Assembly (NCBI GenBank): GCA_000091205.1
Contig: AP006502.2
Origin: Cyanidioschyzon merolae
Lineage: Eukaryota
Length of the DNA stretch: 64,000 bases
Strand: one strand, 5' to 3'
Positions 393-61,200 of the stretch are shown one piece after another. A program made the position numbers and the translations under genes. Within the stretch, counting starts at the first letter, position 1; each line of letters starts with the position of its first letter. The notes under the pieces were generated by a model. That model had not been told where the DNA came from. It did no database searches and saw only the letters and a list, made by a program, of their open reading frames with translations.

Positions 393-766
393 CCAGCGCA
401 CAAACCGATCGCGATGTCACCGGGCAGGTAATGCCAAAACACCTCACATGTCGTAGTTTACGGAAAGGAAAATTCTCCAGCGATGCATCGAGATGAAGAC
501 TCGGCATCGCAGCGGTAGCTCTGAAGCCAAACTTGTAAACGCTGACTTGCAGCACGCTGAACATATTGCAAATTTGGTGCCATGGACACCACCGTATGAA
601 TACTTAAGGATGCGGTTTCGGCCCCACAGCGCACAAAGCTCACAAAGACGTCACCCCATATAACCACCAGCACAGATCGCAATCGATCCCGATCGCGTAT
701 CGACTTGTGCGTTGAGGGAACACGAGCGAGCGCGTAGACGGTAGTGCACCCGCGGAAGCTGCGCGA

Positions 767-12994: not shown

Positions 12995-13225
12995 CGCTGG
13001 TCCAGTAGCGCGGCGCGGCGTATTTGCCTAAATTCAACAAGTCAATTGACTTAAGGATCTGTTTTCGGCAGTGAGCGCTGGTGCAGCGCAGAAGCGCAGC
13101 GTATTTTCCCTAAATTCAACAAGTCAAATGACTTAAGGATCTGTTTTCGGCAGTGAGCGCTGGTGCAGCGCAGAAGCGCAGCGTATTTTCCCTAAATTCA
13201 ACAAGTCAATTGTCTTAGACAAGCC
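12995..13225. repeat. Tandem array of an ~83-84 bp unit, about 2.5 copies, each with the perfect 14-bp palindrome aagtcaattgactt; lies upstream of RPS30
   Basis: Units at 13019-13100, 13101-13184 and a partial 13185-13225: 'cgtatttTccctaaattcaacaagtcaaTtgacttaaggatctgttttcggcagtgagcgctggtgcagcgcagaagcgcag', with 2-3 substitutions between copies. Confidence 0.9.
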
Positions 13226-13679
13226 TGATGGTGCGCGACGTTCTCCGAATCGACGTCTCGGTAGGCGCACCTCCAGATCCGGCAGGCAGAGGACACGATG
13301 AGCATGCCGATTTCAAAGGGAAATACGCGACCCTGAACAATTGTCGATTTGCCGGGAACCAGCAGACATCGCGTTCGAAACATACACTGTTGCTGGTGCC
13401 GCGTTCCATGCAAGACGACGGCATGGCATGACAGCATCAAGCGTGCATCTCGAACGGACGCGGTGTATTTGCGTTAGAGGCATGGCATAGACTTCGACCT
13501 CGATGGTGTTCCACGCCCAGGTACGTGTCGTCAAATGCATTTTCGTGGTTTATATCAAACGCGTTCGTAGTGCGTTCATTTGAAGAAATCAATATAATCC
13601 AACGGATCTGGTAAGGACATTGGAAGTCGAGGATCCTCGAGGGCCGGGGGCCTCAGGCCTCAGGCACCGGAAAAGCAGA

Positions 13680-14115
13680 ACGAAAAATCCTCTCCTCGCC
13701 GACCAACGAGCGAAGAAAAGCAAGCGATGAAGGAGAAGAAGATGGGTGGTAATGGTCCAAAAAAGGTGTCCACCGGACTGGGCGATGATGAGACTGTCGT
13801 GGCACAGCGGGCACAAGTTCTAGCGATCCTCGCCATGACGAGTTCAGCCAGAGGCAATAAACACAGGAAGGTCGTGAGCCGCGACTTCAATGCCGTCATC
13901 AATATAAGATGATATGTAGTGCTGAGGACGAAAACTGCGGAGCTGACGCGTGCGAGCTTTGTGGGCCAGCCTTCTCGGCTCGAAGTGTGCCTGGATACAC
14001 TGAAGCCGATAGCATCGGGTCGGTCAGAAAAGTCTGGGAGGCATGTGCACATGGGCAGATATATTTACCTCCCATGGCCAGAGCGCGTTTCCCGTTATAA
14101 TGGCCGTGTGTATGA
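13680..14115 (+). pseudogene. 3' fragment of a TnpB/Fanzor-like element (copy 4): C-terminal RuvC-III region plus conserved non-coding tail
   Basis: Translates to '...GPKKVSTGLGDDETVVAQRAQVLAILAMTSSARGNKHRKVVSRDFNAVINIRRYVVLRTKTAELTRASFVGQPSRLEVCLDTLKPIASGRSEKSGRHVHMG'. This is homologous to the C-termini of copies 1-3, and the post-stop sequence is also conserved. There is no upstream part of the ORF. Confidence 0.7.
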
Positions 14116-14202: not shown

Positions 14203-15402
14203 TATCAGCTTAAAATCGGATATTGTATTGCTCGCTCAGCGTCTGTCTTGCGATTTTTTCCTAGATGCATTCGATGTACAGCCTCGACAATCAGATTGCC
14301 GGAATAAACGGCCAAGCATGTATAGTACGTGATAGGATGCCCGGTTGCTTTTTCGAAGTGCCCCCGTTGACGCTGTGCCGCTGGCGTTCGTTACGTACCC
14401 GGAGACTCGCGATGATGTGCGACGCGTTCCGATCAGTGATTCCCAAAATCAACCGGTTCCATGATCAGGTTCATATGCACAAGACTGCGTGATACTCCGC
14501 TCCTGACATGTTGGACGCGCTTACCACGCATGCGTCTCTTTTTCGATATTGTCTGTTTCACGACAACTCGTGGGTGCAGCAACTCGTGCCGCTGGATTGA
14601 CGACGACGACGACGACGACGACGACGAAATAAAAAACTCCATGTCGTCCCTTGGCGACCATACAGAAGCTCATGCACAAAGTTGTACGGATTTGATGGTG
14701 TCCAAATCATCGACTCCGATTGAAAGACAGGTCTGCCTCTGCTTTGTGGCCGCCGCCGCCGCCGAGCCGGCACATGACTGACGCAAAATACCTCCCAGGG
14801 CGTGCGCTTCCACAGGATGCCGTCTCTTCCGTTTGCATAGAATCGGGTGCTGGGCTCGCACTCGAGCCATCGCAACGATCGCTTCCAGTGGAGCGTACGC
14901 CAGCGTCTTGCACGAAACGGGCGTAGATGGACCTGAGGAACTCGACTTGCTCTCCAGCGTGGATATTCCCTCCTGGACTCGTTTCGTGATGGACAATATC
15001 GCGTTCCACCAATCCTCTATCGAATGGAACGGCGAGCGCTTTCATGCGTAGCGGGCAGCGTTCTCGAACAGAACATCGCGCGGCAGGCGCCCGTGAACGT
15101 AGAACGCGACCCCAGGGTCGGCAAACGAGGATGGGATCGAGGCGAGCCTCCTGTTGCCGTCAAGGCCACGTGGGGAGCGATGAACCGAGCGTTCACGCGT
15201 CACGAGGCAGCGATCGGAGTGGCAGCTGTGGTGGTGAACAGGTGGCAGCACCTGACCACAGGCACGTGTCACTGGTGCGAGGGGCGCACAGCGACGCTGC
15301 ATACAAAGAAGACGGAACTGGCAAGCGCGGTATCGATTGCAACTACCGTCTACGTATGGAAAGCGTTGACATTAGCCGACTGCGGCGTCGTCGGGGCTTG
15401 AA
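14203..15402 (+). repeat. Repeat A copy 1 (~1.2 kb), contains (GAC)9; direct repeat of 16912-18200
   Basis: Near-identical over its whole length to 16912-18200. Starts 'cagCttaaaatcggatattgtattgctcgctcagcg', ends '...cgtcggggcttgaacgtc'. Its internal ORFs are split by a frameshift relative to copy 2. Confidence 0.9.
14598..14624. repeat. (GAC)9 microsatellite
   Basis: gacgacgacgacgacgacgacgacgac inside repeat A copy 1. Confidence 0.95.
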
Positions 15403-16176
15403 CGTCGCTGCCTCGCCCTCGATCGCCGACCTCAGCGAGCAAGCATGTGCGTCCGGATGCAGCCGTGTCCACTCGCCGCGCTGCGACACGCTTCGATGCC
15501 AAACCGGGTACTGTGCCCCATTAGAGCCCAATCAGCAACGCACCCAAAATCTCGCGGATGCTGCGCCCTGTAGGCTGGAGTCGGCCACAATGCAACGCAC
15601 CAACCTGGATGCGCTCGAGCATACGTGCACCCTTGGTGGCGTGCATCGGAAACGTCCACTGCGTATTTAGACAAACCTCAAATTCTGAGCATCGAGACAG
15701 GCCGAGAACTGCCAAAACATCGTAACTTGCAATGAAAGAAACTGTAATCTCTCGGCTGGCTGCCACCGCCAATCATCGCGCATTCCGGGATAATCTCATA
15801 GGCTGGTTCCCCGATGCTTCTCAAAGAATCCGAGCCAGGTACCAAGTGCGGCTGGCGCCAGATGCTCCATGGCCGGGGCGTCTTCATCGCACAGCGTGTA
15901 TGCAGCGACCGCACCGGCGCTATAGGCGCCATTGCTGTCGCTCTCGGCAGGCACTAGGCACACACGATAGGACGTATGAAACGACCAGAATATCCGAGAT
16001 GAAATATAGGTCATGTAACATGGAGGTAGGGGTTTGACAGATACCTCACCTCGCACTGAAAAAAAAAGCCAAAAAGAAAAGAAAAACGTGCATAATCGGA
16101 GAACGCTGGCCTATGGAAACGTTTCGTCCATGAAAAAACATCATTTGCCAGCGGACGCAGACGCCACAGACGTCCG

Positions 16177-16911: not shown

Positions 16912-17303
16912 CCAGATTAAAATCGGATATTGTATTGCTCGCTCAGCGTCTGTCTTGCGATTTTTTCCTAGATGCATTCGATGTACAGCCTCGACAATCA
17001 GATTGCCGGAATAAACGGCCAAGCATGTATAGTACGTGATAGGATGCCCGGTTGCTTTTTCGAAGTGCCCCCGTTGACGCTGTGGCGCTGGCGTTCGTTA
17101 CGTACCCGGAGACTCGCGATGATGTGCGACGCGTTCCGATCAGTGATCCCAATATCAACCGATATCATGATCAGGTTCATATGCACAAGCCTGCGTGATA
17201 CTCCGCTCCTGACATGTTGGACGCGCTTACCACGCATGCGTCTCTTTTTCGATATTGTCTGTTTCACGACAACTCGTGGGTGCAGCAACTCGTGCCGCTG
17301 GAT

Positions 17304-17345
<42 letters not shown>

Positions 17346-18200
17346 AATAAAAAACTCCATGTCGTCCCTTGGCGACCATACAGAAGCTCATGCACAAAGT
17401 TGTACGGATTTGATGGTGTCCAAATCATCGACTCCGATTGAAAGACAGGTCTGCCTCTGCTTTGTGGCCGCCGCCGCCGCCGAGCCGGCACATGACTGAC
17501 GCAAAATACCTCCCAGGGCGTGCGCTTCCACAGGATGCCGTCTCTTCCGTTTGCATAGAATCGGGTGCTGGGCTCGCACTCGAGCCATCGCAACGATCGC
17601 TTCCAGTGGAGCGTACGCCAGCGTCTTGCACGAAACGGGCGTAGATGGACCTGAGGAACTCGACTTGCTCTCCAGCGTGGATATTCCCTCCTGGACTCGT
17701 TTCGTGATGGACAATATCGCGTTCCACCAATCCTCTATCGAATGGAACGGCTAGCGTTTTCATGCGTAGCGGGCAGCGTTCTCGAACAGAACATCGCGCG
17801 GCAGGCGCCCGTGAACGTAGAACGCGACCCCAGGGTCGGCAAACGAGGATGGGATCGAGGCGAGCCTCCTGTTGCCGTCAAGGCCACGTGGGGAGCGATG
17901 AACCGAGCGTTCACGCGTCACGAGGCAGCGATCGGAGTGGCAGCTGTGGTGGTGAACAGTTGGCAGCATCTGACCACAGGCACGTGTCACTGGTGCGAGG
18001 GGCGCACAGCGACGCTGCATACAAAGAAGACGGAGGCGGCCTCTGACCGCAGGCACGTGTCACTGGTGCGAGAGGCGCACAGCGACGCTGCATACAAAGA
18101 AGACAGAACTGGCAAGCGCGGTATCGATTGCAACTACCGTCTACGTATGGAAAGCGTTCACATTAGCCGACTGCGGCGTCGTCGGGGCTTGAACGTTGCC
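16912..18200 (+). repeat. Repeat A copy 2 (~1.29 kb), contains (GAC)13 and an internal ~65-bp tandem duplication
   Basis: Direct repeat of 14203-15402. (GAC)13 sits at 17304-17342. The 65-bp unit 'ctgaccacaggcacgtgtcactggtgcgaggggcgcacagcgacgctgcatacaaagaagac' occurs twice (17981-18045 and again to about 18105). The internal 175-aa ORF is continuous here. Confidence 0.9.
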
Positions 18201-24686: not shown

Positions 24687-24977
24687 GACCCTTTTGTATG
24701 GTACGTGGCATCGAAGCACAGGTCGCGGCGGATGCCGAGATGCTCCTCGCGGCATCGAGGCGTTACGACGACCGCGAATACTGAGCACGATACGCCTTTT
24801 GTGATGATGTATCGTCCGCTCTGTGTGCAGCGTTACGCGAATATGATGTGTGGTGTTCTTTATGACTCGCAGGGGGACCAATGGTGATGACTGGTGATCG
24901 TCACATTCATGAATGGGAAACTGCCGCCATCGGGCGGGTTGCGTAAACGCAGGTATCCATGCACGCCGCTGCATGCC

Positions 24978-25135
24978 CGCTCTTGTGACGTGCTCGAGCC
25001 AGATGGGTATCACCACACGATGAATGTCGATGATGCCACAAATCCGGTTCAGCATACTCGCTCTTGTGACGTGCTCGAGCCAGATGGGTATCACCACACG
25101 ATGAATGTCGATGATGCCACAAATCCGGTTCAAGG
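24978..25135. repeat. 84-bp tandem duplication (2 copies) in the intergenic region between convergent genes
   Basis: 'cgctcttgtgacgtgctcgagccagatgggtatcaccacacgatgaatgtcgatgatgccacaaatccggttca' is repeated at 24978-25061 and 25062-25135. Confidence 0.9.
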
Positions 25136-31580: not shown

Positions 31581-32194
31581 ACAAACGCACGGTGCTGATC
31601 AATGAACGCACTCCTCCTCTGAACGATGCGTTTGCGAATATGTCCTGCAGCGCAGCACGATCGCTGAACAACCCTTGACTGGACAGTGCCAGGACCGATT
31701 CCGTTGCGTGTTCGTGCGGGCGCTTCACGCCAGTCACGTTCCGTGACGCAGTTCCTCGAGATCCGGCACCGTCGTGCGTTACGTACTAGTGCAGTAGCAA
31801 GTGAAGCAGAGTGAAGCAATGCGCCCACAGCGACCGTACAGAACACTTTGCTAGCTGGACGAACGTTACGCATGCGCCTCTCGCATCAGAGGAGGCCACT
31901 GCATTGACCGATGTTACGAGCCAATGCGCTCCGAGAAGCGCATTTGAGCACCATGCGTTGACCAGGGGCGTCTGACACACCACCCCTCCGTGTTACGAAG
32001 CGTACAGCGCTGAACGAAGTCAAAAGAAAGCCCGAGTCGCGTGGAAGTATCGAGTGGTTTCTGTGAACCGCGCAGGTCGTTCTCATACCATACCTAAAAG
32101 TTAAATCTCAATACCCTTCAAGTTGATCCTGGGATTTCGATAGCGATGCCGCAACAGAAGCACCGCTCACCACTAAACGCCCTCCAAAAGCCAA

Positions 32195-34700
32195 ACGTTG
32201 CCGCCAGCAGCGGTATACAGTGGTGGCGCGAAGCCCGCCCTAGACAAGAAGTCTCCAACTGACGTGCAAACGCCTCCCAGTCTTTTTGGACCGGCCACCC
32301 ACTGCTGCTTTCAAGTTCTTCTCATATCATTCCACTTTGAGAGGTTGTCCAACAAAATTCCATCTTGTCAACTCCGGAGGTCTTCTTTCCATGGCCGCGC
32401 ACCTCTTTATATTGATAGCGGCGTTAGTCACGATTCACAAACTCCATACGCTTCTTGCCATTGATTGTACTAACCAGTGCAAGGAGTCCTCGAGCTTTCG
32501 CCCTCCTTTCCATTTGCTCTTCCGTCAGTGGTCCGTACCTTTTTATATCCTCAGGGCTCCGTTGGCACTTTTCCATCTCGAGCCTCTGAAGTATACACCC
32601 CAGTTCATGGTGTGTATAGGACGTTCGGAACTCATCTACAGGTATCGTAACGAAACGCCGTGCACACTCCTTGTCCACCCTCGTCGTTGGAGCTGGTGCA
32701 CACCCCTTTTGGGTCTTCCATCGGCCTGCTCCGTACGCTACTACGAGCCTCTGACTTTCATTCTCCTTCAGGGCGCTCAACTCATTGAAAATTTTCGCGA
32801 ATGCACGTTGCCTCCCACCGTATAGATTCATCCGCAGACGAGCCCACCGGGGCTTTCTACACTCCTCCCACAGCGCATCCCAATACGCAACGCGAACTTC
32901 CATGAACTCTCGAAAAGCTTTAAAGTCCGCTCCGCGGCTCGTCACCTCGCTCAAAGCCTCCAGGTGATCCTTCATTCCTGCGTTCCACGTCTCAATTTTC
33001 TTCCTAGCATTCATGATACCGGATTCTCGATAGTATCTTGCTCTCGAGAATCTCAACAGACGCATGTCCTTCTGACGTAATTTACCGTCAGTACCATCTT
33101 CCGCACGCTTGAGTGCTGCGATGGTTATGATATTCGTGTTTCCGAGGTCCGCGCCAACGACAAAGTCGTTATCCTGCACTTTCTGCGTCGCAAGATCCGC
33201 CTGTTTGTTTTTTCATGCTTGGTCATGGGCAGAACTGGACGATCCACCTTCAACCGCCGATAGTGTACACACATGGCTACTCCATCGGTTTCGGTCATCC
33301 CACTGAATTTCTTTTCCCTGCTTACTTTGAGACGTTTGATTTCGAAGATGTTCTTCCAGTAGGTCTCACAGTTTTCACCGGAGAACTCCTCCCTGTTAAC
33401 ATTGGACTCGGGACTGATCTCCCTCATGATGCCGTAAAGGATTCTGGAATCGATAGTCACAAAACGTGACTTGATGTTGGACAACGGAACGACGTTGAAG
33501 CGCTTACCCAGAAGCGCAGCCTTTCGTCTCCCCCACTCTTCATTTTTTCCTCACTCAGCTTCATCTCTGCCTTGCGTTCGAGTTCACGGTCCAGAAACAC
33601 AAAGTAACGCAGGACGAGGCGATAGTATCTTTCGTTATCTTTTTTCAACTCTGATATGTTTGCTGCTCGGTTTGCCAACCCCAGTACCGCACGATGCTCT
33701 TGTATAGCCGCTCGGATGACGGAATCCTCATTGATGCTCCTGAGTGATTTCTTCTCGTCGATGAATTCAATCTCATCTTCACGCTTGCGATCGTTCGTGT
33801 TGCCATTGACAATCGCCCATATCCCCTGGCGAATGAGACCGGGGTAGAGTGCAAAGATGGAGCGTATCATGAAGCTTTTGAGGTTCATTGTTAAATGGTT
33901 CTTTAGACTGGTGAGGTACTTCATCGCCCCGTAGGTGTAAATATTCCAATCCCCCCTGTATCGAGTACCGTCGAAGCGGAAGTCGGCGTAAATTTTGTGG
34001 AGGGCATGAACTCGCTCATTTCACCTAGACGTTTCCCCGGTGCCAAGCATAAAGTGATAAATAAAGGTTTTGTTGAAAAATTCTTCCAGAATATGGACTG
34101 TTTTGATGTCCGTAACGTCATGATACCATTTTCTTAGGAAATCCACCATTCCTTGAGAAGCGTCACGAACACCGCTGGAGTTCGGCTCGACACGGTTCCA
34201 GATTGCCTCTTGAACGTTTTCCCTGTACGGATCCTTGGTATGTTGAAGAAGACAGGCTTTCACCGCCATCTCGTCGTACCGTCGTCTTTTGTGTAGCCTT
34301 TGACGTAGGGCCTTCCACTTTTACTTCTTCTTCTTATCCTGTTCCTTTGCACTTGGCACTGTTCTTCGTTGTTTCGGGCTGCCGGCGACATTGGCGCCCA
34401 GGATCCTACACTTCCACTTCCGTAACTTTCCTTTTTCAATATAAAAACCGAAACCACTTTGGATGGGACAGCTATTACGCACGAAAAAGCACTTGAATAC
34501 AGTAGAGTGAAGGTTGAAACACGATTGAGGACAAACAATGTATTTTTCTACGACTTGAACATCGTTACAATTTGTACGTTAGAGCTACACGCTTCATTTT
34601 TCCGATGGAAAAACACTTATATTGACAATGGATCCCAGATTGTGCTATGAATGGGTATCGGATTCAGCGAAAGCGTCCATCATGCTGCATCCTAACTCCA
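32195..34700 (-). mobile_element. TnpB/Fanzor-like element copy 1; ORF broken by several frameshifts
   Basis: Minus-strand ORF pieces 34269..34021, 33924..33457, 33484..33125 and 33179..32424, plus a frameshifted tail to about 32275, are co-linear with the 757-aa copy-3 protein. The '[15 protein letters not shown]' RuvC-I-like motif is intact. The RuvC-III region 'RD*..NAAINI' is disrupted by a 2-nt deletion. The 5' leader and the 3' post-stop tail are both conserved with copies 2 and 3. Confidence 0.75.
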
Positions 34701-35269
34701 GATTCCATTACGTATACTTCCTTTCAGATGTACTACTCGTCTCGTGCTTCCTGTCATTCGCCGGGTGCATGCGTTGATGCACACGCCTTAGCGTCTAATC
34801 CGCTGATGCCGATGAATCACAGAGACAGGACAGCGTTGCCGTACTACTGAGAGCGTCGGATCGAGGAATGCTCCACCTGACACAGAGTTGGAGTATAGGA
34901 TCATTCTGGGAGCCAGCAAGCTCCGCAGACAGACACACTGCCTGCGATAGCGTGAAGCTCTATACTAGGACTCCACCGCGACCAGATCGACGCCCAGATG
35001 CAGTTTAACTGCCGCTAGTACCAGAATAAACTGTGCTTCAGACGAATTGCTCAGATTTCTATGCAGCACCCGCCACTGGGTGGCGAGCACGAAGCACGTG
35101 CCTGGGGTACTCGTCTGGCTCGCGGGTTTTTCCGTCGAGAAAATCAACTTTCGACAAAACGGGAACCGTTTCCCCCTTTTATCGTTTATCGTGCAGGGGA
35201 GATAAATTGGGGTACCTTGCTAGTTAATGGTTAGTCTCTGTTCTTTGCTCCGTATGCTGCGGTCGGCTA

Positions 35270-37770
35270 GCGCGCCGGGGAGATCAGGTCGTACGAGACA
35301 AGACGCACGTGTCGCCGTTGAAAGGAGACGCGAAATTGTGAAAATCCGTTTTCTTATTGTTCTACCGTACAAGTTGTATTTGCGTTAAAGTCGTAACAAA
35401 GTAAAGTTGTTTCATGCAATTGTGTTTCAAACCTCAAGTAAGTGTATACAAATGATGTTTAGCGATTCAGATCAGAAGCGTTCAAAGAGCCTTCTTCTTC
35501 TTCAAAAATAACAAAAGTTATGGAAAAGAAACTGGAGGATCCTGGACATCTGGTGTCGTCGACTGCCGGAGACTAACGAAAAACATGGCGGAGCTAAAAG
35601 GAACATGAGAAGACGATGGAGCAAAAGAGGGAGGCCCGAGGTAAGAAGCTGAACGAAACACGACAATACGACCATATGATGGTGAAAACCTGTCTTCTCG
35701 GGCATATCAAGGATCCGTCCAGGCGAAAGCTGCGAGAGGCCATCAGAAACCGTATCGAGTCATACTCCATGAGTGTTATGATGGCTTCTGCAGGTATAAT
35801 GCATTCGGTGAAGGAGATGCACGACGACGTAACGGGCATCAAAACAGTCGAGGTTCTGGAAGAATTTTTCGGCAAAACCTTTATTCGTCACCTGATGCTT
35901 GGTACAGGGGAAACGTCGAGGAGAAATGAGCGGGTGCATGCCCTCCACGAAAATTACGCCGAATTCCGCTTCAACGGTCCTCGAGACAGGGGTGACTCGC
36001 GTATTTACACCGTCGGGGTAATGAAGCACCTCACGAACCTGAAGAACTATTTGACCATGAACCTGGAACGTTTCATGATACGCGCCGTCTGTGCGCGCTA
36101 CCCGGGCCCCTCTCGCGAAGGGATATGGACCATCACCGATGGCATCACAAACGATAGTAAGAATGAGCAGGAGATCGAATTTGTTCACGAGAAGACATCA
36201 CGCAGGAGAGCAAATGAGGATTCTGGAATCCGTGCGGCTATTAAAGAGCATCGTGTGGTCTTGGGGCTGGCGAGTCCAGCAGGAAAGATATCAGAGTTGA
36301 AAAAAGATACGGAAAGATACGATCGCCTCATCTTGCGCTATACCATACTCCTGAACCGACAACTGAAATGCAGGACCGATATGGAGCAGGGTGTGGAAGC
36401 AAATGCAGTGTCGGAGAAACGGAAAGCTGCGCTTCTGGAGAAGCGCTTCAACATCGTTCCGTTATGCAACATCAAGTCACATTTTGTGAGTATCGACTCC
36501 GAAATCCCTCACGGCATCATTACGGAGATCTGTCCAGTGTTCGATGTAAGCAACAAGGAGTTCACCGGTGAAAACCAGGAGACGTACTGGAAGAAGAATA
36601 TCTTCGATTCCAAACGTCTCAGAACGAGCAAGAAAAAGGAATTCACTGGGATGATCGAAAGCGATGCGATAGCCATGCGTGTACATTATCGGCGCTTGAA
36701 GGCGGATTGCCCAGTTCCGTCTTCGTTGCAGTCGCTGGCAAAGCGTGAAGAAAACAAAGAGGTTAGCCCAACGAAGCAGGAGGTGCATGAGAACCACTTT
36801 GTCGTTGGCGCGGGCCCTGGGAACACGAATATCATGACCATCACAACACGCAATTGCGGGGATGATGGCATCGACGGCAACCTACGTCAAAAACACATGC
36901 GTGTTTTAAAGCGCTCAAGAACGAGATATTACCGAGAATTCGGTGTGATGAATGCAAAGAAGAAAAGTGGAACGTGGAATGCTGGAGTAAAAGAGCACCT
37001 GGAAGCGATCAGCCAGGTGACGGGCCGAGGAGCGGACTTTCTAGCTCTTCTGGAGTTCATTAAAGTTCGCGTTGCACATGACGTGGCACTGTGGAAAGAA
37101 TATACAACGCCTCGGTGGGCTCGTCTACGTACGAATCTGTACTGTGGAAGAAGCGTGCATTCGCCAACTTTTTCAATCAGTTGAGCGCCCTCAAGGACGA
37201 CGAGAGGCAGAGGCTCGTCGTAGCATACCGATCAGGGCGCTAGGCGTGGAAAAAGGGACTACCCGAGCTCCAACGCCGAGAGCGAACGAGAAATGCGCAC
37301 CCCGTTTTGTCACGATACCTGTAAATCAGTATCGAGCATCGTATGTGCACCATGAGCTGGGGCGTACACTCCAGAGGATCAAGAAGGAAAAGTGCCAGGG
37401 GAGCCCCGGGGATATAAAAAAGTACGGAGCGCTAACAGAACAGCAAATGGGACGGAGGTCTAAAGTTCGAAGACCCCTGGCATGAACGAGTACAGCCAGT
37501 AACGGCAGGAAACGTATGGCGTTCGTGAACCGAGACTTTAACGCTGCTATCAATATCAGGAGATATACGCTGCTAAAGAAGAGACCCGACAAGCTGACGC
37601 GAGCCAGCTTTGTGGAGCACTCCCTCAAGACCGAACTGTACTAGGAGAAGCTGAATCCAGTAGCAGGTGATCGGTCCAGAAAGACGAGGATCCGCCTGCA
37701 CGTCCGCAGATAAACATGCAGTCCGAGGGCGCGAGGTACCCAGAAACACACCGACGGCGGCTGCGCACGC
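35270..37770 (+). mobile_element. TnpB/Fanzor-like element copy 2; frameshifts plus an in-frame TAG
   Basis: ORF 35616..37184 continues, after a 1-nt deletion, into 37072..37485, and after a further shift into '...GRKRMAFVNRDFNAAINIRRYTLLKKRPDKLTRASFVEHSLKTELY'. The RuvC-I position reads '[11 protein letters not shown]' (Asp to Gly). The 5' leader starting 'ggagatcagg...' and the 3' tail are shared with copy 3. A (gcgtgcaat)3 run lies at 37785-37808, just outside the element. Confidence 0.75.
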
Positions 37771-45485: not shown

Positions 45486-48320
45486 ACCTCGGAGATGAAC
45501 AGGCCGGGCGCTCTTCACACACGAAGCCAGCTCTGTGCGGTGCAGGTCGCTCGCTTGTGAGTGTATCGCATATCTGCGGCACTTTATTTGTGTGTCTTGA
45601 GATCTGTGTGTCTATATGCTAGAGTATCAGCGGGTCGTCAGGCGCGTGTGTGGCTCCTCGAGCATGCGCTTCCCTGATCGCTCGACTCGGGGCCCTGCGG
45701 GCATTCAACATTCTCGACGCATCTGCGAGACGTGTGTCATGGATCCAACCGGCATTGCACCTAGCCGCTGGCAAGGCGCCTCTGAATCACTGGACATACG
45801 TAAGCATCGTGCTCGAGCTGTTGAGCTCTTTTCGAAGGGAATCTACCGACAACATGGCTTGCAAAGTCATCGGGGCGGGACCACACAACAGGGGCTTTGT
45901 TTGGACCCTCTTTTCAAAAACGCAACCAGAGACGGCACTTGGATGCATTCATTCAGCTTTCCGCACACGTAACAGGTTGCAGCTATGCACAAGCGCCTCG
46001 TACGCGACCGGTCATTAGCGAGATACCTGCGTAGAATCGCGGTCTTCGTAGAGAGCATGCGTTCCGTGCGACGCTCCAAAATGACAGCGTATTCTGTCCA
46101 CGATTCTGCCTGCTCGTCATTTGGCTACAGACCGTCGGCTTTGTGAGCGCAAGCTGAAAGCGTTCACGCAATGCGCATGATGCATCATCAATACAACCAG
46201 CCAAGCAAGACGGGATTCCTGACCATGGACTAGATTTCGCGTCAGGGGAGTCTGTCGAAGAAGCAATGCGTGCGAGGAGGACGTGAGCCAATCACGATCA
46301 TCCTCCATCCGCCCGGTCTTTCTCTGGGGTATTGAGTGAATGCTCAATCATTCGGAATAGAAGCCATGACGAAAAGCACCAAGAGACAAACGTGGGGTCA
46401 CTGCAGCGGCGTGCATACCAGCCCAAGCGCTTGCTGGGGCAACCAGTGCTTGCTGAGCGAACGCTGCGTAACGCTCTTAGCGACAGCAGTTTTAGACTCG
46501 CGATCGGCAGTGGCACACTCGGCAGGTCTTTTGGGCGAAGGATCAGGACGCATCCGGGATGCACTACTGCACACCTGCGGTACCAGAGAGGAACGAGGTT
46601 CCCGGACAGACCGTATTCCCGCTAGTGGAGGGTGCCGTACCCGCGCCTCGGCAATGCCTAACGAGGTTGCTGTTCAGGACTTGAATCTCTAGAATGCTTC
46701 CTACAGATGACGAGACTTTGGACTCAGAGCAGCGCACTTGCAAGAACATGTATCAACACGGTAAACGTGTAATTGTTTGTTTTTCGCACAGGTATTCAAA
46801 ACGTGGATTGTATATTATAGAGCGATGAAAGGTCGCGAGATGACTTTATGCTGGCTGGCTGGCTGGCTTCGGAGCAAAACGCCTTTACTTGTCCAGACCA
46901 GACATTGTGCGGACAGCAGACGTATGAGGTACCCCTCTCGTAGTGCGTTCCTTGAACGACTTGCACCGACCACAGCAAGTTTCAAAAGCTATCTACATGA
47001 GCGTCCCGTCTTTCATGTATTCCAGCCCGGATGATATCCATGACGTACCTCCAAAGAAGCCGCTGGATGAGAGGTTTTCGAACGGTTGATACAAATTGCG
47101 GTGAAGCGACACGAGTGAACGAAGAAGATGGCAGGCTACTACTTGTAGCTGCAGCACCTTGAACAGCGCACGATCGATTTCGCACTGCAACGCGAAAGTT
47201 TATTCCACCAGGGGCATATTGCCGTCTCAATGTATGAGACTTTATTCAGTAGACTTGGTAGATTTGTGTATGGATAATTCAAAACGGGGGCAAACTGCTG
47301 TTCATAGAAAAAAAGCAGCGGGGCTGTCGGTACTATTAGCCCTGGCTACGACTCGGTTATGTAGTTACTTATACATCGCCAAGAATTGTCTAATCGTTCA
47401 ACATCGCATGCTGCGGGGAATCACGTTTTGCGACCTATTCGTTTCACGTTCTTCTTCACTGGCCTTAGACGTTGCCGCTTTCCATCACTATAATGTGGTC
47501 ACGGAGTATGCAGATGAGATCGGCAATGAGCAGTGCTACGTGTGAGCGATGGCTCCCGGTTCCAATCGAGTAGGGGGTATGTCTGTCGGTCTCTGTGCTA
47601 CGCCCGATCCAGCGGTTTGGGCGCTGTTTCGAACGCTCACGGCAGTCGCAGTGCACAATGGAACGTCGGAAAAGCAGAATGTCGGAGATGAGGCACGCGA
47701 TGTGACTGGTGGAAATCGCAGAGCTGGTACGCAATGACGGCAGATTTCCCGGGTGTCGGTACTCGTCGTGAATTCCCGGATCATTGAGCCGTGAGCACAT
47801 TCCATCGATCAGAACGAATTTGCGGTGGGTTGCTCGACACTTGCTGGCCTGGCGCCGGATAGAAACACAATTCAAACCAGTTTCTCATTCCAGCGTCTGT
47901 GCAGAATGGACTGCAAGAAACGGGAATAAACGTGTATCCGTAGTCGGGAAGACTGCGGCGCATAGTTTGTTTACGATCAATAAAACGAACGAAATTCCTG
48001 TTGAGTAGGGTGATGCATACCTCGCCCGCACAAGCGTAAGATACTACAATGGCTACGCTTTTGATACAGGCGTCGAGGGGTATCGTGCCAGGCCCCTGCA
48101 TCCCCTTGTCTGTCGGGGCGGTACTGCGATGGGCAGTAGCGTCGGCACCAGCGACAGAACCTATAGCAAGAGTTCATTCTACGTGAGTTTCCGATGTACA
48201 ATACGTTGTTTTGGCTGCAGTGCACCGGTGAGAGCACGCATGTGCCAATGCGGGGTGTCGGACACGTGTCCTTTATCGATCGGTGCAGCGTCTCGCGCGG
48301 TGCACGCATCGCGCTCAGTG

Positions 48321-50965
48321 CGCGCACCTAGGAGATCAGGCAGGCGTGAGACACGACGCGCATGCCGCCGTTGAAGGGAAACGTAATCGTGATCAGCAGC
48401 GTCTAGCTCTCGTGTTAAAGTTGTATTTTCGTTGACTTTATGGGCAAGTATAGTTTTCAGTTCAATTGTGTTTGAAAACTCAAACAAGTGTATTCTAGTG
48501 TTTTGTCGCAGTATATAAGAGGAGCGTTCAAAGAGGGTTCTTTTTCAAAAAAAACTAAACAAGGAAAGTTATGAAAAAGCAAGTCGACGATCCTGGAGGC
48601 CCAGTGTCGCCGGCTGCCAGAAAGAAAACAAAACACAGTGCCGAGTCCAGAAGAAGAGGAGAAGAAAAAGAAGCAAAAGGAGGAGGCTCTACGTCGAGTG
48701 CTGCAAGAAAGACGAATGTACGACGAGAAGGTGGTGAAAGCTGGTCTTCTTGGATATATCAAGGATCCGTACAGGGAAAATTTGCGAGACGCTATCAGAA
48801 AACGTGTCGACTCGTACTCCAAGAGTACTGTCAAGGCGTCGTCAGGACTGATGCACTCGGCGAGGGAGATGTATCGCGACGTGACGCACATGCAAACAGT
48901 CGAGGTCCCAGACGAGTTGTTCGACACGACCTTTATTCGATACTTGATGCTCGGTACAGGGGAGATGCGAAGGGAAAATGAGCGAGTGCACGCCCTCTGC
49001 CAAAAATACTCCTTCTACAGCTTCGAGGGCACTCGATACAGGGTTGACTCGTGTATTTACGAATACGGAGCGATAAAGTACCCCACGAACCTGAATAAAC
49101 ATTTGACCGTGAACCTCGAACGTTTCATGATACGCGCCGTGTTTGCACTCTACCCGGGCATCTCTCGCAAAGCGATATGGATCATCATCGATAGCATCAA
49201 AAACGATAGTAAGAATGAACAGGTGATCGAATTTGTTCACGAGAAGACATTATGCAGGAAAACGAATGAAGCTTCTGTAATCCGTGCGGCTATACAAGAG
49301 CACCGTGCAGCACTGGGGCTTGCGAGTCCAGCAGAAAAGATATCAGAGTTGAAAAAAGATAAGAAAAGATACCATCGCCTCGTCCTGCGCTATTTCGTGT
49401 TTTTGGACCGAGAGCTCGAACGCAAGGCGGAAATGAAGCTGAGTGAAGAGACAAATGAATATTGGGAGAGACGGAAGCCTGTCCTAATAGGGCAGCGCTT
49501 CAACGTGGCTCCAATGTCCAATATCAAGTCACATTTCCTGACGATCGATTCCGGCGTCGTTCATGGCATCATGAGGGAGATCAGTCCCGAGTTCAATGTT
49601 AACAGGGAGGAGTTCTCCGGCGAAAACCGGGAGACGCACTGGAAGAATATCTTCGATTCCAAACGTCTGAGAGTGAGCAAGCAAAAGTTGTTCACTGAAA
49701 TGATTGAAACCGATGGAGTGGCCTTGTGTATACACTATCGGCGGTTGAAGAGAGATCGGCCAGTCCCTCCCTCGGCCGCGCCCGTGACGAAGGATGAAGA
49801 AAAGGAGGAGGCCGGTCCTGCGACACAGGAGGTAGACGATAACGACCTTGTCGTTGGCGCGGCGGAGCATGAAGATGAGAAGGAGGCGGATCCTGTGATG
49901 CAGGAGGTGGAGGATAACGGCCTTATCGTTGGCGCGGTGAAGCTTGATGAAAACAAAAAGGCAGATCCTGCCACGCAGAGAGTGCAAGATAATGACTTTG
50001 TCGTTGGCGCGGACCCTGGGAATACGAATATCATCACCATTGCAGCACCCAAGCGTGCGGAAGATGGTGCTGATGGTAACTTGCGTCAGAAAAACATGCG
50101 TCTTTTGAGGTTCTCGAGAGCGAGATACTATCGAGAATCGGGAATGATGAATGCAAGGAAGAAAATCGAGACATGGAATGCAGGAATGAAGGAGCACCTG
50201 GACGCTATGAGCGAGGTGACGAGCCGAGGAGCGGACTTTGAAGCTTTTCGGGAATTCATGGAACTTCGTGTTGCGCATTGGGATGCACTGTGGGAGCAGT
50301 ATACCAAGCCTCGGTTGGCTCGTCTGCTTATGAATCTATACGGGTAGAGGCAGCGGGCATTTGCGAACTTTTTCAATCAGTTGAGCGCCCTCAAAGAGGA
50401 TCAAAGTCAGAGGCTGGTAGTAGCATACGGGGCAGGGCGCTGGGCGCCCAAGAAAGGCACTACGCCAGCTCCATCGACGAGAACGTACAAGGAGTGTGCG
50501 CGGCGTTTTGTTAAAATTCCTGCAGATGAGTTTCGAACATCGTATACACATCATGAACTGGGATGTACACTTCAGACGGTGGAGATAGAAAAGTGCCAAC
50601 GGAGTCCTGAGGAAATAGCAAAGTACGGACCGCTGACGGAAGAGCAAATGGAAAGAAGGGCGAAAGTGCGAGGGCTACTCGCATTAGTAAGTACAACCAG
50701 TGATGGAAAGAAACGGATGGAGTCTGTGAATCGAGATTGTAACGCCGCTATCGATATAAGGAAATGTGCGGTGCTAGAGAAAAGACCTCCAGAATGGACA
50801 AGAGAGAACTTTATTGGACAACCTCTCAAAGTCGAACTATATGAGAAGAAGTTGGAAGCAGTAGTGGGTGGCCGGTCGCAAAAGTCTGGGAGGCGTCTAC
50901 ACCTCGGATGAAAGCGTTATGTCTAGGGCGGGTTTCTCGCCACTAGTGTGCACGGTCGGCATCGT
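48321..50965 (+). mobile_element. TnpB/Fanzor-like element copy 3 (best preserved)
   Basis: A ~300-bp leader is shared with copy 2. A single reading frame runs 48638..50911 with one internal TAG. About 55 bp of post-stop sequence is conserved with copies 1, 2 and 4. Confidence 0.8.
48638..50911 (+). pseudogene. ~757-aa TnpB/Fanzor-like (RuvC-fold) protein gene with one in-frame TAG at 50345-50347
   Basis: ORFs 48638..50347 and 50381..50911 are in the same frame, separated only by 'tac ggg TAG agg cag'; copy 1 reads 'tac ggt ggg agg caa' at that point. Motifs: K/E-rich N-terminus; '[16 protein letters not shown]' (RuvC-I-like); 'FVKIPADEFRTSYTHHELGC...EKCQ' in the position of the TnpB zinc ribbon; 'NRDCNAAIDIRK' (RuvC-III hallmark D-x-NAA-x-NI). 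Confidence 0.75.
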
Positions 50966-51216
50966 TCGACTGCGTTTAGGTTCTCTCTTTTGCAAATGAA
51001 ACACATCCTCCATCAGACTTGCGAAAACGACGCAGCGCTCCTTGTCGTGCGAAGGCGTTTCCGCGCTCGTGCCTGCAACGCTGTACATACCCGTGTGTCT
51101 ACAGAGGCCGGCGCCATGCAACCGCCCTGGCGAGCAGCTGTTTATCCGGAGATGCTTATAGCATCTTGAACTCGGAGTCGAGCTTCGTTTTCCGTTGTGC
51201 GCAGATGGTGGCGTGG

Positions 51217-58254: not shown

Positions 58255-61200
58255 GGTATCCGTACGAACACTTCCAGCGCGTGTACGACGTTTCTAGTTT
58301 CGCGCGTGCCGCGCTAGCGACGCGACAGCGCCGGATGCGCCTACCGATCGAACTGCATGTGTGAGGCGCGCACGGATCATCACACGCCGCGAGCGCTCGC
58401 GAAGCGCAGCATGCGCGCGCGCAACGCAGTGTCCATCTTAGATCTGAAACAAAAATGGACATTGACCCAGACGGAGGCACAGGCGCGGCATCCGTGGTAG
58501 TGTGCTTTCGTGCAGCGCCTGGCGAGCGCATCTTCGATGTTGTTGTTGCTGTAGTTGTTTGGACATAACTATGGCGCACAGAACAGAGATCCTCGATTGC
58601 GCTCATCGATAGGGGAAAGTGTCCATCATGATTCACGCTAGCTGCAGGTTCCACGATCGCTGGTCGACTGCGGAGATCCTGGCTATTGTCCAGGTCCTAT
58701 CGTGCATCGAATGCCTGCCTTGAGCGTTCGTGATAGCGCGTATAGCGCCGGTGCGGAAGTACAGCACGGAGGCGTCGATGCGTGTGCGTGGCGCCGGCAG
58801 CCGCGCGCACCCACACGAGCAGCGTCCGGTTGGATGCATCGCTCTGCGGACTCTGGCATGCCATGGGCGCTTGCGCATGAATCGAGCGCTCTGCACTGGG
58901 GTTTGAGGCGTTCAAGGCAGGCGCTCGACGCTCGCTGGAACATGCGATATGAGCGGTATCTCTGAGGGGACCGATGGGTAGCGGCTCGTGGAGCCTGCAG
59001 GTATGGTGCGGAATGATGGACGCTATCCTGCATGTCGATATGGGCCATGCAATCGCGCGGATGCGTGGTGAATGTCAAGCTTCTGTCAAATACAAAAAGT
59101 TGGGCAAGATGCATGCTCCCGAGGTGTGCGCAAAAGCGGCAATAACGCGCTCCCACGACGCCGGGATCCAGGTCTTGTGTCGATGTAATTGAGTGCATCA
59201 ACGAGATGAGCGGCCCGCTTGCGCAGTTCACAGCTGTGTTCCCAATTGGAATCGATCGCGCGGGATGCATGAAGCGCCGCCTCGAGTCGTGAAGAAAGAG
59301 CATGTACCTCAGGGATTTCGTACCTGGGGCGACTCGCCTGATGCGAACGCCGGCCTCGAATCCTCGGCACATGCGGTTTTGGTACTGCATCCATGTGAAA
59401 GTAGTGGCTGCTGTTCGCTTGCGTCTGATATCGCATATTGCAGGGATACGCGCGCCGTAATGATGCATGTACAGTTCAGATGGAGGGAACTTTTAAAAGC
59501 TTGCTTTGGCACTGTCTCACTGAGTCGACACCCGCAAAGTCTTGGCGAGGCGGTTCCATGTCCCTGCGGCAGCAGCACCAGCAGCACTTGCCGAATGGAC
59601 GCTCGACAATCTTATGATCATCAGAGGGATTGATCGTGTCCTCCACAGTGAAAGTTGAATCGGGCATTTCTAAAGAAACTGTGGTCTTTATCCCTGGTAA
59701 TTGGCAATATTTACGAAGCCGACAGCATCCAATGAGATGCACAACCCCTACCCCGCACGAAAAAACACTGCTTTACGTCCAGATGTTCACAGTGGCGTCC
59801 GGGAACGTGCATGCAGGGTAAGCACTTGGAGGATCCGATGAGGAATGATGGCTCCACAGTTACAAGCTGATAACAATTGCGGAACCGGGGATCCCTCGTT
59901 CGTCCCAACGGCCTTATACGATGTAATAATGCTGGGTAGGCACGAGCGTCTCGAACTGCGCTCGACACTGGAGCTCGACCCAGCCGAGTGCGATGTCAAT
60001 GTTGCTCGTTGGAGATCATCGCCAGATCACAAGTGGACTACCCGTTTGGACATGGTGGTGAACGAACACGCACAACGCTGGCTCGTAAGCGTAAACGAAC
60101 GTGAACTGAGGCATCCGCGACGAGTGCTTCCTCCAATCCTTAGGGCCAAATTGATTCTTTGTAACAACAGGGACACTTTTTCTGAACTGGTCGCTCGCGA
60201 AATTTATCCTCAGTGGGTATACCCAGTTCCGGATACCTAAAGGAATAGAGGATACATCCGATATGCGTTGAATCGTGCGACTCCGGCCGCATCAAGATAC
60301 GGCAGGCTAACGCGCTGACGAAGACATCTCGAGCGCAACGCTACCCTGTGCAGAGAGGCAACTCTGCGAAGATGATTGCTTTCTTTGGTTCGCAAGGATT
60401 TTCAACTGATGCGGGTGTAGATCCTTGGAGTTCAAATTCACCAGTCGAGTAGCACGCGTCAAGCGCCTCAAATCCATCAAGTTCGACGTGAATCGGGCTC
60501 CAGGGCGAGCTCGACGGCTTTAGTGTACAAAGCGTCCTCTAGAAACCGGCGACGCGTGCAGTGATTCCACTCTGTAATTGAATGACATGCATGTACTGTT
60601 GTTCGAACCTAGGGTACAAGTACCGCTCAGGATGAGATTCGGCGGAATCACCACCCGCTCTGAGTGCTCGGGAGTTTTCTGTATCCCCTGCACTGAGGTA
60701 CATCGAGGATCCTGGGCCGGATCAAGCACACTCTCTCTGGACCAAGTGTCGGAACGCGTCCTTGATTCACATCGAGCATACCTTCTCGCAGTAATCGAGG
60801 AAGCGACAAGCCCCGAGGGCGTTTCGCTTGGAAGAGCATTCATTACGCCGCCTCGGCTCAGTAGCGCGACCTCTGAGCTACGCATTCTGAAAATTGCAAC
60901 GCCATGCCGCGAATCCACGTAGCGGTTCGATGCCCTGACTAACAATGTCATCGTTCGGTGTCAGCGACCTGATGGTGCCGGTGAAAACGGAACGCCGTCG
61001 TCTGCACACCATGGTTGTCGTTGTCGTTGTTGTTGGCATCCATTGAAGCAGTGCAGTTTTCTGCGGCTTTTTCCGAGTATGCATCAGATTCGCTCAAACC
61101 GGGATATAAGAGGGCACCGCCAAAGCGCTTCAGCCCGAGGCACGTACGCATGTCTCCAGAAATTGCAAAAAGCTTCTCTGGGATGGAGAGCATTACCCGG

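Follow-up and report, generated by a model that had tools for sequence, protein, structure and literature searches.

A decayed CMe-1A repeat with a Fanzor1-related reading frame in the nuclear genome of Cyanidioschyzon merolae

The window analyzed here, a 64-kb stretch of DNA from the red alga C. merolae, contains three copies of the repeat CMe-1A, which are 74–83% identical to one another (Table 1). The third of these (copy 3) is flanked by C. merolae nuclear genes, and three ORFs in the window are identical to the C. merolae 10D proteins BAM83066.1, BAM83069.1, and BAM83063.1. These exact matches reject a trypanosomatid source, which GC content and ORFs without introns had suggested. In blastn comparisons, the CMe-1A consensus aligns with all three copies at 82–88% nucleotide identity, and copy 3 matches the consensus in two overlapping segments (consensus positions 648–2196 at 84.6% and 2117–3137 at 87.7%). 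Rfam and tRNA scans of the 64-kb window returned no match. The region 48310–50976 is almost certainly a pseudogenized copy of CMe-1A, a nuclear, Fanzor1-encoding repeat family of C. merolae, with an ORF that descends from Fanzor1, a homologue of TnpB and Cas12 found in eukaryotes. The initial annotation of this DNA had placed the element at 48321–50965. However, the core reaches from 48310 to about 50976, and a further 5′ segment (47850–48309) precedes it.

Table 1. Coordinates of the CMe-1A copies in the window and of the features of copy 3.
Feature	Position	Strand	Basis or remark
CMe-1A core, copy 3	48310..50976	+	Consensus 648–3169 plus TT
Copy 2, long form with TE-N2 head	34603..37704	+	Consensus 1–3089; 6 stops, 2 frameshifts
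Copy 1, head to head with copy 2	32178..34593	-	Consensus 735–3169; 4 stops, 5 frameshifts
5′ head segment	47850..48309	+	No counterpart in CMe-1A consensus; common to a subset of copies; palindrome GGACACGTGTCC
GC hairpin CGCGC-TCAGT-GCGCG at 5′ boundary of core	48310..48324	+	Read directly; function putative
Ancestral ATG, now out of frame	48571..48573	+	Aligns with ATG of consensus CDS (consensus position 906)
A-rich run with 1-nt insertion relative to consensus	48618..48636	+	Codon-aware alignment; comparison with consensus and L001
Fanzor1 ORF part 1, 569 codons	48638..50344	+	Lys/Glu-rich N-terminal tail, REC/WED regions, RuvC-I
Three tandem 75-nt (25-aa) repeat units, linker before RuvC-I	49788..50012	+	Self-blast
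Predicted RuvC-I catalytic Asp in GADPG (50006–50020; Fanzor “DPG” motif)	50012..50014	+	45/45 relatives
In-frame TAG	50345..50347	+	Gly (GGG) in consensus and copy 1
Fanzor1 ORF part 2, 188 codons plus TGA	50348..50914	+	RuvC-II, Ealt, degenerate TNB region, RuvC-III
Tyr at canonical RuvC-II Glu position (LVVAYGAG)	50426..50428	+	Tyr in 38/45, Phe in 7/45 relatives
Predicted alternative catalytic Glu (Ealt) in ADEFRTS	50528..50530	+	45/45 relatives
Predicted RuvC-III catalytic Asp (NRDCNAA)	50735..50737	+	Asp in 44/45 relatives
Asp replacing family-invariant RuvC-III Asn (NAAINI to NAAIDI)	50753..50755	+	Invariant column N731 of 45-relative alignment
Right end past stop: conserved GGGCG...CGCC hairpin and truncated terminal hairpin	50915..50976	+	26-copy alignment, folds, covariation count

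CMe-1 and CMe-1A were described in 2013 in the paper that defined Fanzor, in which CMe-1 is listed as a Fanzor1 (Bao and Jurka, Mobile DNA 4:12; Repbase; PMC3627910). [quoted passage not shown] That publication already covered the family and its host, copy number, absence of TIRs, and homology to TnpB. Copy 3 shares the host and the protein architecture of CMe-1A and differs from it in nothing essential, as befits a member copy; relative to the consensus, it has two additional 25-aa repeat units and a pseudogenized ORF. The CMe-1 consensus protein is colinear with the copy-3 ORF, and the first part of this ORF belongs to the same family as the consensus protein and is 70% identical to a near-intact relative (P0001). 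Related stretches were identified in hot-spring metagenomes (n = 344). Chance is ruled out as the origin of the ORF and its motifs, as the existence of hundreds of family copies and a published consensus lies far beyond what chance could produce.

The plus-strand frame from 48638 to 50911 is interrupted by a single TAG, which separates 569 aa from a further 188 aa, and ends at a TGA (50912–50914) located 5 codons ahead of the consensus stop. The length of approximately 757 aa, the location of the TAG, and the GGG (Gly) codon of copy 1 at that site are as the initial annotation reported them. However, the gene had also been described as intact except for this TAG, and three other lesions are present, namely a frameshift behind the ATG, the Asn-to-Asp replacement in RuvC-III, and the deletion of one arm of the terminal hairpin. 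A +1 indel near 48624 (CDS nucleotide ~53), a 1-nt insertion, has shifted the ancestral ATG (48571) out of the main frame; the TAG, which is private to copy 3 in comparison with copy 1 and the consensus, is therefore not the sole lesion. Owing to the frameshift and the TAG, no open frame leads from the ancestral start codon through to the stop in copy 3. Decay is worse in copies 1 and 2 than in copy 3, as determined by codon-aware alignment to the consensus CDS, and a near-complete ORF was found at one locus (L001) among 80 metagenome loci plus three further loci. The 25-aa repeat unit that forms the linker before RuvC-I is present once in the consensus and up to about five times in other copies, and this linker is disordered in the AF2 model (P0001 residues 388–470).

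The protein encoded by copy 3, with its frame repaired to 757 aa, gave no meaningful match in single-sequence searches (Pfam-A and NCBIfam with hmmscan, the PDB with phmmer), and neither OrfB_IS605 nor OrfB_Zn_ribbon of Pfam matched it. The signals were limited to a DUF8286 label, which was faint, and, on the relative P0001, a match to Cas12f1-like_TNB at E = 0.23. A shallow profile of 12 sequences found no match in the PDB. On the other hand, a profile of 45 relatives, which are 24–46% identical to P0001 and were aligned after an exhaustive representative search, matched the solved Fanzor1 structures of PpFz1 (9cf0, E = 3.9e-20), SpuFz1 (8gkh, E = 1.3e-14), and GtFz1 (9cer, E = 4.1e-7), with no non-Fanzor chain in the PDB at E ≤ 1. 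The profile search recovered 2,213 proteins at E ≤ 1e-3, and a homologue search with a broad alignment retrieved almost exclusively close CMe-1 fragments.

Structure prediction was carried out on the near-intact relative P0001 (70% identical to copy 3) and not on the exact copy-3 sequence. The AF2 model was unusable with an alignment of 13 sequences (pLDDT 36.5), and only the alignment of 45 sequences gave a good model (pLDDT 81, pTM 0.79). In Foldseek searches of the PDB with this model, the top seven matches were all Fanzor1 (SpuFz, PpFz, GtFz; E from 4e-17 to 4e-14), followed by Cas12 and TnpB, and the TM score relative to SpuFz was 0.71–0.73. The predicted fold of the protein family is that of Fanzor1, with WED/REC lobes and an RNase-H-like RuvC domain. 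Because the single-sequence searches were empty, the assignment rests on the profiles and on the model of the 70%-identical relative. Together, profile homology and fold match bear out the identification, in the initial annotation, of a Fanzor1-type gene for a TnpB/Cas12-like RuvC nuclease in a multicopy eukaryotic element.

The motifs of copy 3 comprise GADPGNTNI (50006–50032), LVVAYGAG (50414–50437), ADEFRTSY and THHELGC (50522–50566), and the RuvC-III motif NRDCNAAIDIRK (50729–50764), and all of those quoted previously are present where they had been placed. Alignment with SpuFz1 and PpFz1 located the RuvC-I Asp, Ealt, and the RuvC-III Asp: the Asp of GADPG aligns with DP(G/N) of both proteins, Ealt with DEFRTS of PpFz1 and DEYKTS of SpuFz1, and the RuvC-III Asp with NRD of both. 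Among Fanzors, the canonical RuvC-II position is normally occupied by a non-acidic residue, and the Glu is relocated to a site after beta-5 (Ealt) (PMC10530073, PMC10711439). Judged from the alignment, the Tyr of LVVAYGAG is the standard Fanzor rearrangement, and the predicted catalytic Glu sits in DEFRTS. This Tyr had been taken to indicate either a rearranged catalytic site or an inactive nuclease, and the Glu of DEFRTS, invariant in 45/45 relatives, decides for the former. As these conserved positions show, the family keeps a Fanzor-type catalytic triad made up of the DPG Asp, the Glu relocated to DEFRTS, and the RD-NAA Asp (D459, E631, and D700 in the numbering of the copy-3 ORF).

The original definition of the Fanzor/TnpB motif includes a C4 zinc finger. 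No such finger (CxxC...CxxC) is present between the Glu and RuvC-III in CMe-1, including the segment that the initial annotation had assigned to the zinc-ribbon position. Among the 45 aligned relatives, which are the scope of this comparison as against the 2,213 proteins of the profile search, none has the CxxC pair and one has a single CxxC. We treat the missing zinc finger as a clade-level variant and not as exclusion from Fanzor1.

Copy 3 could still be functional if the TAG were read through or edited and if translation were initiated from an AUG farther downstream or from a codon other than AUG, in which case it would encode an active RNA-guided nuclease. In favor of this, the TAG is the one interruption in a frame otherwise open over 758 codons, all three catalytic residues are present, dN/dS relative to the consensus is 0.30, and some CMe-1A copies keep intact ORFs according to Bao and Jurka (PMC3627910). 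However, translation from the element's first AUG (48571) would run in another frame, and an in-frame AUG is first reached 27 codons into the ORF, beyond the Lys/Glu-rich N-terminus that the initial annotation had called NLS-like. Random lesions of a similar kind are found in the neighboring copies. We regard a functional copy 3 as very unlikely. Copy 3 is a pseudogene, a relic unable to act as an RNA-guided nuclease, because its ATG is frameshifted, its frame contains a private internal TAG, the invariant RuvC-III Asn is mutated, and an arm of the conserved terminal hairpin is lost. The proposal that it is the best candidate in the window for a programmable nuclease fails for this decayed copy of a long-described family. 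Constraint peaks in the RuvC half of the protein, and most of the divergence of copy 3 from the consensus dates from a time when selection still acted on the protein of its lineage. In the 3′ part of the CDS, four-fold-site divergence showed no clear dip of the kind that would signal overlap with an omega-RNA, except in the last 14 codons.

A protein of unrelated fold with coincidental RuvC-like motifs would be consistent with the empty Pfam-A, NCBIfam, and PDB searches of the single sequence and with the faintness of the DUF8286 and Cas12f1-like_TNB matches. Nevertheless, the matches of the profile to the PDB are exclusively to Fanzor1, with E-values down to 4e-20, the fold search gives Fanzor1 and then Cas12/TnpB, and the motif residues are invariant across relatives of 24–46% identity. 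The profile-to-PDB and Foldseek results refute this reading, which we consider exceedingly improbable. The same degree of improbability applies to a prokaryotic TnpB of the IS200/IS605 or IS607 type, acquired through bacterial contamination or recent horizontal transfer. Copy 3 does have the D-E-D architecture of RuvC and the RD-NAA-NI motif in common with TnpB, and a TnpB (8h1j) is among the weak fold matches (E = 1.4e-2), but Fanzor1 matches better by at least 13 orders of magnitude. Moreover, copy 3 is embedded between nuclear genes of the alga, no TnpA-like or transposase-like ORF is located in or beside the element, and neither OrfB_IS605, OrfB_Zn_ribbon, nor any NCBIfam model matches. 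The protein has the DPG motif and the relocated Glu instead of the canonical one, and its length of ~750 aa with a large REC is typical of Fanzor1. A prokaryotic origin of this kind is thus refuted by genomic context, profile, fold, and catalytic residues, and descent of the ORF from Fanzor1 is the reading retained here.

The 5′ end of copy 3 differs from that of the consensus. The first 635 bp of CMe-1A are identical to TE-N2_CMe (PMC3627910), a part that is present in copy 2 and absent from copy 3. In place of the 5′ 647 bp of the consensus, which include this TE-N2_CMe-like part, copy 3 has a 460-bp head of other sequence. Copy 3 begins at consensus position 648, as do ~30 metagenome copies, and thus combines a CMe-1 core with another head. 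By blastn, the head (47850–48309) is 75–80% identical to metagenome copies L068, L030, L054, L032, and L011 and 98% identical to L056. The 5′ heads vary among the copies of the family. The consensus and other short-form copies have an equivalent (GCGCG-N7-CGCGC) of the hairpin that lies at the 5′ edge of the core.

The right end past the stop codon is a candidate for the scaffold end of an omega-RNA or for a signal used in transposition. The terminal hairpin (50962–50974) has lost its 8-nt 3′ arm in copy 3. Among intact copies, the hand-specified terminal hairpin has 83% of its cells paired, compared with 33–56% in slid registers, and three pairs changed on both sides. RNAalifold gave a weak consensus over the last ~240 nt (-8.2 kcal/mol, covariation term -0.1). 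No TIRs were seen at the aligned ends when these were checked by eye. In the left flanks of long-form copies, T is the commonest base at positions -7 to -1 (9–13 of 15 non-redundant flanks at -7 to -2), and TT is located past the element end in 26 of 27; the predicted target or TAM is T-run | TT(T)GTTG. A palindrome is present near the 5′ end of the element, and a 9-nt asymmetric inverted match, a candidate ATIR (GACAAAACG and CGTTTTGTC), exists between the long-form 5′ end and a site ~57 nt from the 3′ end, with no compensatory change. The non-autonomous Helitron2-type carriers of Fanzor1 in Chlamydomonas (CRe-1/2/3; Bao and Jurka, 2013) likewise lack TIRs, and CMe-1A resembles them in its 3′-terminal hairpin with some compensatory changes, the T-run before the long-form 5′ end, and the variable 5′ heads. 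On the other hand, pairing of a 5′ ATIR with a 3′ ATIR and a CTRR-like end could not be shown.

A broader proposal, which is tentative and in our estimate rather doubtful, is that CMe-1 represents a large Fanzor1 clade without the TNB C4 zinc finger, in which purifying selection maintains an invariant D-E-D triad, carried on hairpin-ended, T-run-targeting Helitron2-like elements. If this were true, the currently unclassified CMe-1A/TE-N2 carriers would gain a transposition mechanism, and an intact or consensus-reconstructed CMe-1, if active, would add to the RNA-guided nucleases one that lacks the zinc finger and comes from a thermoacidophilic alga. Because C. merolae grows at ~42°C and pH 2 and can be manipulated genetically, an active CMe-1 could have some practical interest. 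By analogy with characterized Fanzor1 and TnpB proteins, the CMe-1 family may have nuclease activity. In an active member, the 3′ end of the element would give rise to an omega-RNA that carries a guide from the flanking DNA and is bound by the protein, and the complex would cut a matching site beside a transposon-adjacent motif, which would favor retention or homing of the element. Copy 3 itself has little discovery value, although it provides a useful calibration, as three short motifs were enough for the initial annotation, made from the raw sequence, to recognize a Fanzor correctly.

The biochemistry and structures of Fanzor1 were published in 2023–2024. SpuFz1 of Spizellomyces punctatus (PDB 8GKH, 9CEU-9CEZ; Saito et al., 2023; Xu et al., 2024) has its overall fold in common with CMe-1 (Foldseek E = 4e-17) at about 15% sequence identity, and in both proteins the RuvC-I Asp is found in D-P-x, the Glu in DE(Y/F)(K/R)TS, and the RuvC-III Asp in NRD. 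However, the stretch between Ealt and RuvC-III holds a Cys-rich TNB zinc finger (CPRC...CTNPNC) in SpuFz1 but none in CMe-1. The omega-RNA and activity of SpuFz1 were demonstrated experimentally, whereas those of CMe-1 are putative. PpFz1 of Parasitella parasitica (PDB 9CF0-9CF3) is the best profile match, spanning REC, WED, and RuvC, and is among the top structural matches together with GtFz1 of Guillardia theta (9CER-9CET). Both keep Cys pairs, unlike CMe-1. The third catalytic residue is Asn in GtFz1 and Asp in CMe-1, and instead of the FRI insertion of PpFz1, CMe-1 has the variable linker of 25-aa tandem repeats before RuvC-I. Compared with TnpB, CMe-1 lacks a TnpA partner as well as any Pfam OrfB match, carries Tyr at the canonical RuvC-II Glu position and DPG in place of D-hydrophobic-G, and is twice the size. 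Nevertheless, CMe-1 resembles TnpB (ISDra2 TnpB, PDB 8H1J) and Cas12f in its RNase-H-like RuvC core and D-E-D chemistry, and presumably also in the logic by which a guide is supplied from the right end of the element.

The element under study (copy 3, core 48310-50976) belongs, in decayed form, to a family already described in the founding Fanzor paper, and is thus known rather than new. Bao and Jurka (2013; PMC3627910) first defined Fanzor1 and Fanzor2 and listed one Fanzor1 family for Cyanidioschyzon merolae, CMe-1A, with ~150 copies, each ~80% identical to a ~3-kb consensus. The family has no TIRs, its TSDs were left undetermined by the authors, and its 5' 635 bp is the repeat TE-N2_CMe (PMC3627910). 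The reference for comparison was the CMe-1A consensus (3,169 bp) together with the CMe-1 protein (734 aa), both published with that paper. By its blastn identity to the consensus, copy 3 is therefore a member copy of the published family. The multicopy element proposed in the initial annotation was recovered as three copies inside the window with a mutual identity of 74-83%, and all of the motifs quoted there were located in the copy 3 ORF. Three ORFs near copy 3 are identical to proteins of C. merolae strain 10D.

CMe-1A copies, copy 3 motifs and catalytic residues, flank sites, and neighboring ORFs in the window
Feature	Position	Strand	CMe-1A consensus (blastn identity)	Remark
Copy 1	~32178-34593	-	735-3169 (84.7%)	CMe-1A element, head to head with copy 2
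Copy 2	~34603-37704	+	1-3089 (81.7%)	CMe-1A element
Copy 3			648-2196 (84.6%)
Copy 3			2117-3137 (87.7%)
GADPGNTNI	50006-50032	+		Copy 3 ORF
D459, DPG Asp	50012-50014	+		Copy 3
LVVAYGAG	50414-50437	+		Copy 3 ORF
ADEFRTSY then THHELGC	50522-50566	+		Copy 3 ORF
E631, Ealt (relocated catalytic Glu)	50528-50530	+		Copy 3
NRDCNAAIDIRK	50729-50764	+		Copy 3 ORF
D700, RD-NAA Asp	50735-50737	+		Copy 3
Flank sites	34596-34602 and 50975-50990			Insertion-site bias, with metagenome loci L007-L086
BAM83066.1				Neighbor ORF, retinoblastoma-family-like; exact protein match, strain 10D
BAM83069.1				Neighbor ORF, Nug1 GTPase; exact protein match, strain 10D
BAM83063.1				Neighbor ORF, NADP-GAPDH; exact protein match, strain 10D

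Copies 1 and 2 lie directly against each other at the 34593/34603 junction, and because the junction sequence recurs in the related metagenome loci L014 and L052, this arrangement is old or has itself propagated. The lowest G+C of the window (0.475-0.50 vs ~0.56) occurs at 32000-36000, where these head-to-head copies sit. Relics of TE-N2_CMe and CMe-1A are strewn through the window: five scattered pieces match the first ~200 bp of the consensus, the TE-N2_CMe part (54048-53887, 16030-15923, 6454-6323, 59088-58912, and 58613-58771), and two short pieces match the CMe-1 body (13440-13647 and 13853-13972). The window also contains a tandem duplication with a ~2.7-kb period and 95-100% identity (14206-15408 and 16913-18199), within which a 73-nt unit occurs at 15244, 17962, and 18035, and two separate two-copy tandem repeats of 81-82 bp (13023-13186 and 24971-25132).

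Single-sequence searches of Pfam-A, NCBIfam, and PDB returned no match for the copy 3 protein, and the only match for a 70%-identical relative was Cas12f1-like_TNB (E = 0.23). Close relatives are nearly all fragments from hot-spring metagenomes. An exhaustive profile search collected 2,213 relatives at E ≤ 1e-3 (369 at E ≤ 1e-30), and 45 of them, which share 24-46% identity with P0001, a CMe-1-type protein, were aligned (alignment A5). When every PDB chain was searched with the A5 profile, it matched three molecules only, all of them Fanzor1, from Parasitella parasitica (E = 3.9e-20), Spizellomyces punctatus (E = 1.3e-14), and Guillardia theta (E = 4.1e-7). With A5 as input, the AlphaFold2 model of P0001 had a mean pLDDT of 81 and a pTM of 0.79; a model from 13 close sequences had a pLDDT of only 36.5. 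In a Foldseek search of this P0001 model against the PDB, the top seven matches were SpuFz, PpFz, and GtFz (E from 4e-17 to 4e-14; TM 0.71-0.73 relative to SpuFz), while Cas12b, Cas12f, and TnpB ranked below at E ≥ 1e-3. The initial annotation had taken the gene for a Fanzor-like nuclease, to be abandoned if homology or fold failed; owing to the profile and Foldseek matches, both come out for Fanzor, specifically Fanzor1. Among the word-index relatives, P0032 is the most distant (L005 378-3181); it is an intact protein of 629 aa with 35% identity, and a Tc1/mariner DDE_3 transposase gene lies directly upstream of it. Fanzor1 inside Mariner is a classic arrangement, which this locus fits.

Fanzors are marked by a DPG motif and an inert residue at the canonical RuvC-II Glu, with an alternative Glu just before the zinc-finger-bearing (TNB) region (Jiang et al., Yoon et al.; PMC10530073, PMC10711439). 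In A5, the canonical position is Tyr or Phe in 45/45 sequences, and the DPG Asp (45/45), DEFRT Glu (45/45), and RD-NAA Asp (44/45) are conserved. For the Tyr at RuvC-II, the initial annotation had offered either a rearranged site or a dead nuclease; at the family level the former holds. Judging from this alignment, the CMe-1 family is predicted to use the rearranged Fanzor catalytic site. No CxxC...CxxC zinc finger was found between Ealt and RuvC-III in CMe-1 (50531-50734 in the window), and A5 has a single CxxC in 1/45 sequences and a CxxC pair in 0/45, although the triad is still conserved. In contrast, the Cys pairs are kept in each of the solved structures (SpuFz1, PpFz1, and GtFz1). A C4 zinc finger is part of the motif by which Fanzor/TnpB was originally defined; CMe-1 does not have it, but Bao and Jurka classed CMe-1 as Fanzor1 all the same (PMC3627910). 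A non-exhaustive literature search found no mention of a zinc-finger-less Fanzor1 clade.

Copy 3 itself is a pseudogene. It has one open frame (48638-50911, plus strand; TGA at 50912-50914) with a single break at TAG 50345-50347, and had been considered intact apart from that codon. However, codon-aware alignment to the consensus CDS scored further lesions. An A-rich run near 48624 holds a +1 indel (CDS nucleotide ~53), because of which the ancestral ATG (48571) falls in another frame and no in-frame AUG occurs until 27 codons into the ORF, and the frame stops 5 codons ahead of the consensus stop. Besides these, the NAAxN Asn, invariant in the family, is replaced by Asp, and an 8-nt deletion has removed the terminal hairpin's 3' arm. 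In copies 1 and 2 there are 4-6 stops and 2-5 frameshifts. L001 is the only one of 80 related hot-spring metagenome loci and three further loci with a near-complete ORF, and even its ATG is out of frame and its final ~30 codons are missing. Copies decaying neutrally from a master would be expected to show a dN/dS of ~1. Measured against the consensus, copy 3 has a dN/dS of 0.30 and the other copies 0.29-0.56. Divergence at codon positions 1+2, taken relative to divergence at four-fold sites, is lowest in the RuvC half (ratio 0.25-0.47; 74 copies). The CMe-1 family was under purifying selection in the past, which fits the "long lasting coding capability" remarked for CMe-1A by Bao and Jurka (PMC3627910).

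Compared with the consensus, copy 3 has two extra 75-nt repeat units (49788-50012), in a linker that is disordered in the AlphaFold2 model. The unit encodes an acidic 25-aa segment (...EKEADPxxQEVxDNDLVVxA...) just upstream of RuvC-I, duplicates the beta-strand running into the catalytic DPG, and varies in number from 1 to ~5 across elements (also L001 7151-7450 and L002 4426-4651). Long-form CMe-1A copies have the TE-N2 head and begin at consensus position 1; the short form begins at 648-687 and has at least three unrelated 5' heads. The copy 3 head (47850-48309) is common to six metagenome copies. Its 47866-48320 segment is 98% identical to L056 1795-2249 and identity drops to 82% in the 3' part (49863-50971), a difference that points to recombination or conversion among copies, or to a head of more recent origin.

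The right end of CMe-1A is conserved past the stop codon and carries a GGGCG...CGCC hairpin. The terminal hairpin occurs in two sequence variants, CGTTCGA-CTT-TCGAACG and CGTTTTTC-TTTT-GAAAGACG. In the first, 83% of cells are paired vs 33-56% in slid registers, with double changes in three pairs and a covariation score reached by 7/500 shuffles, so that covariation support is modest. RNAalifold over the full 3' 240 nt was weak, and no clear extra constraint was detected at four-fold sites of the 3' CDS except in the last 14 codons. The terminal hairpin may be an omega-RNA or transposition feature. By analogy with SpuFz1, GtFz1, PpFz1, and TnpB, an active CMe-1 would bind an omega-RNA transcribed at the right end of the element that encodes it, guide nucleotides from the flank would locate a TAM-adjacent target, the single RuvC site (D-Ealt-D) would cut it, and the cut would tilt repair toward copying the element back.

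The flanks are non-random. Long-form 5' ends are preceded by a T-run, with T the commonest base over the last 7 nt (at -7 to -2, in 9-13 of 15 flanks), and the 3' end is followed by TT and the G/T-rich TTNGTTGNNGG in 26/27 non-redundant copies. The Helitron2 carriers of Chlamydomonas Fanzor1 have a TTTT^T target, of which the T-rich flanks of CMe-1A are reminiscent.
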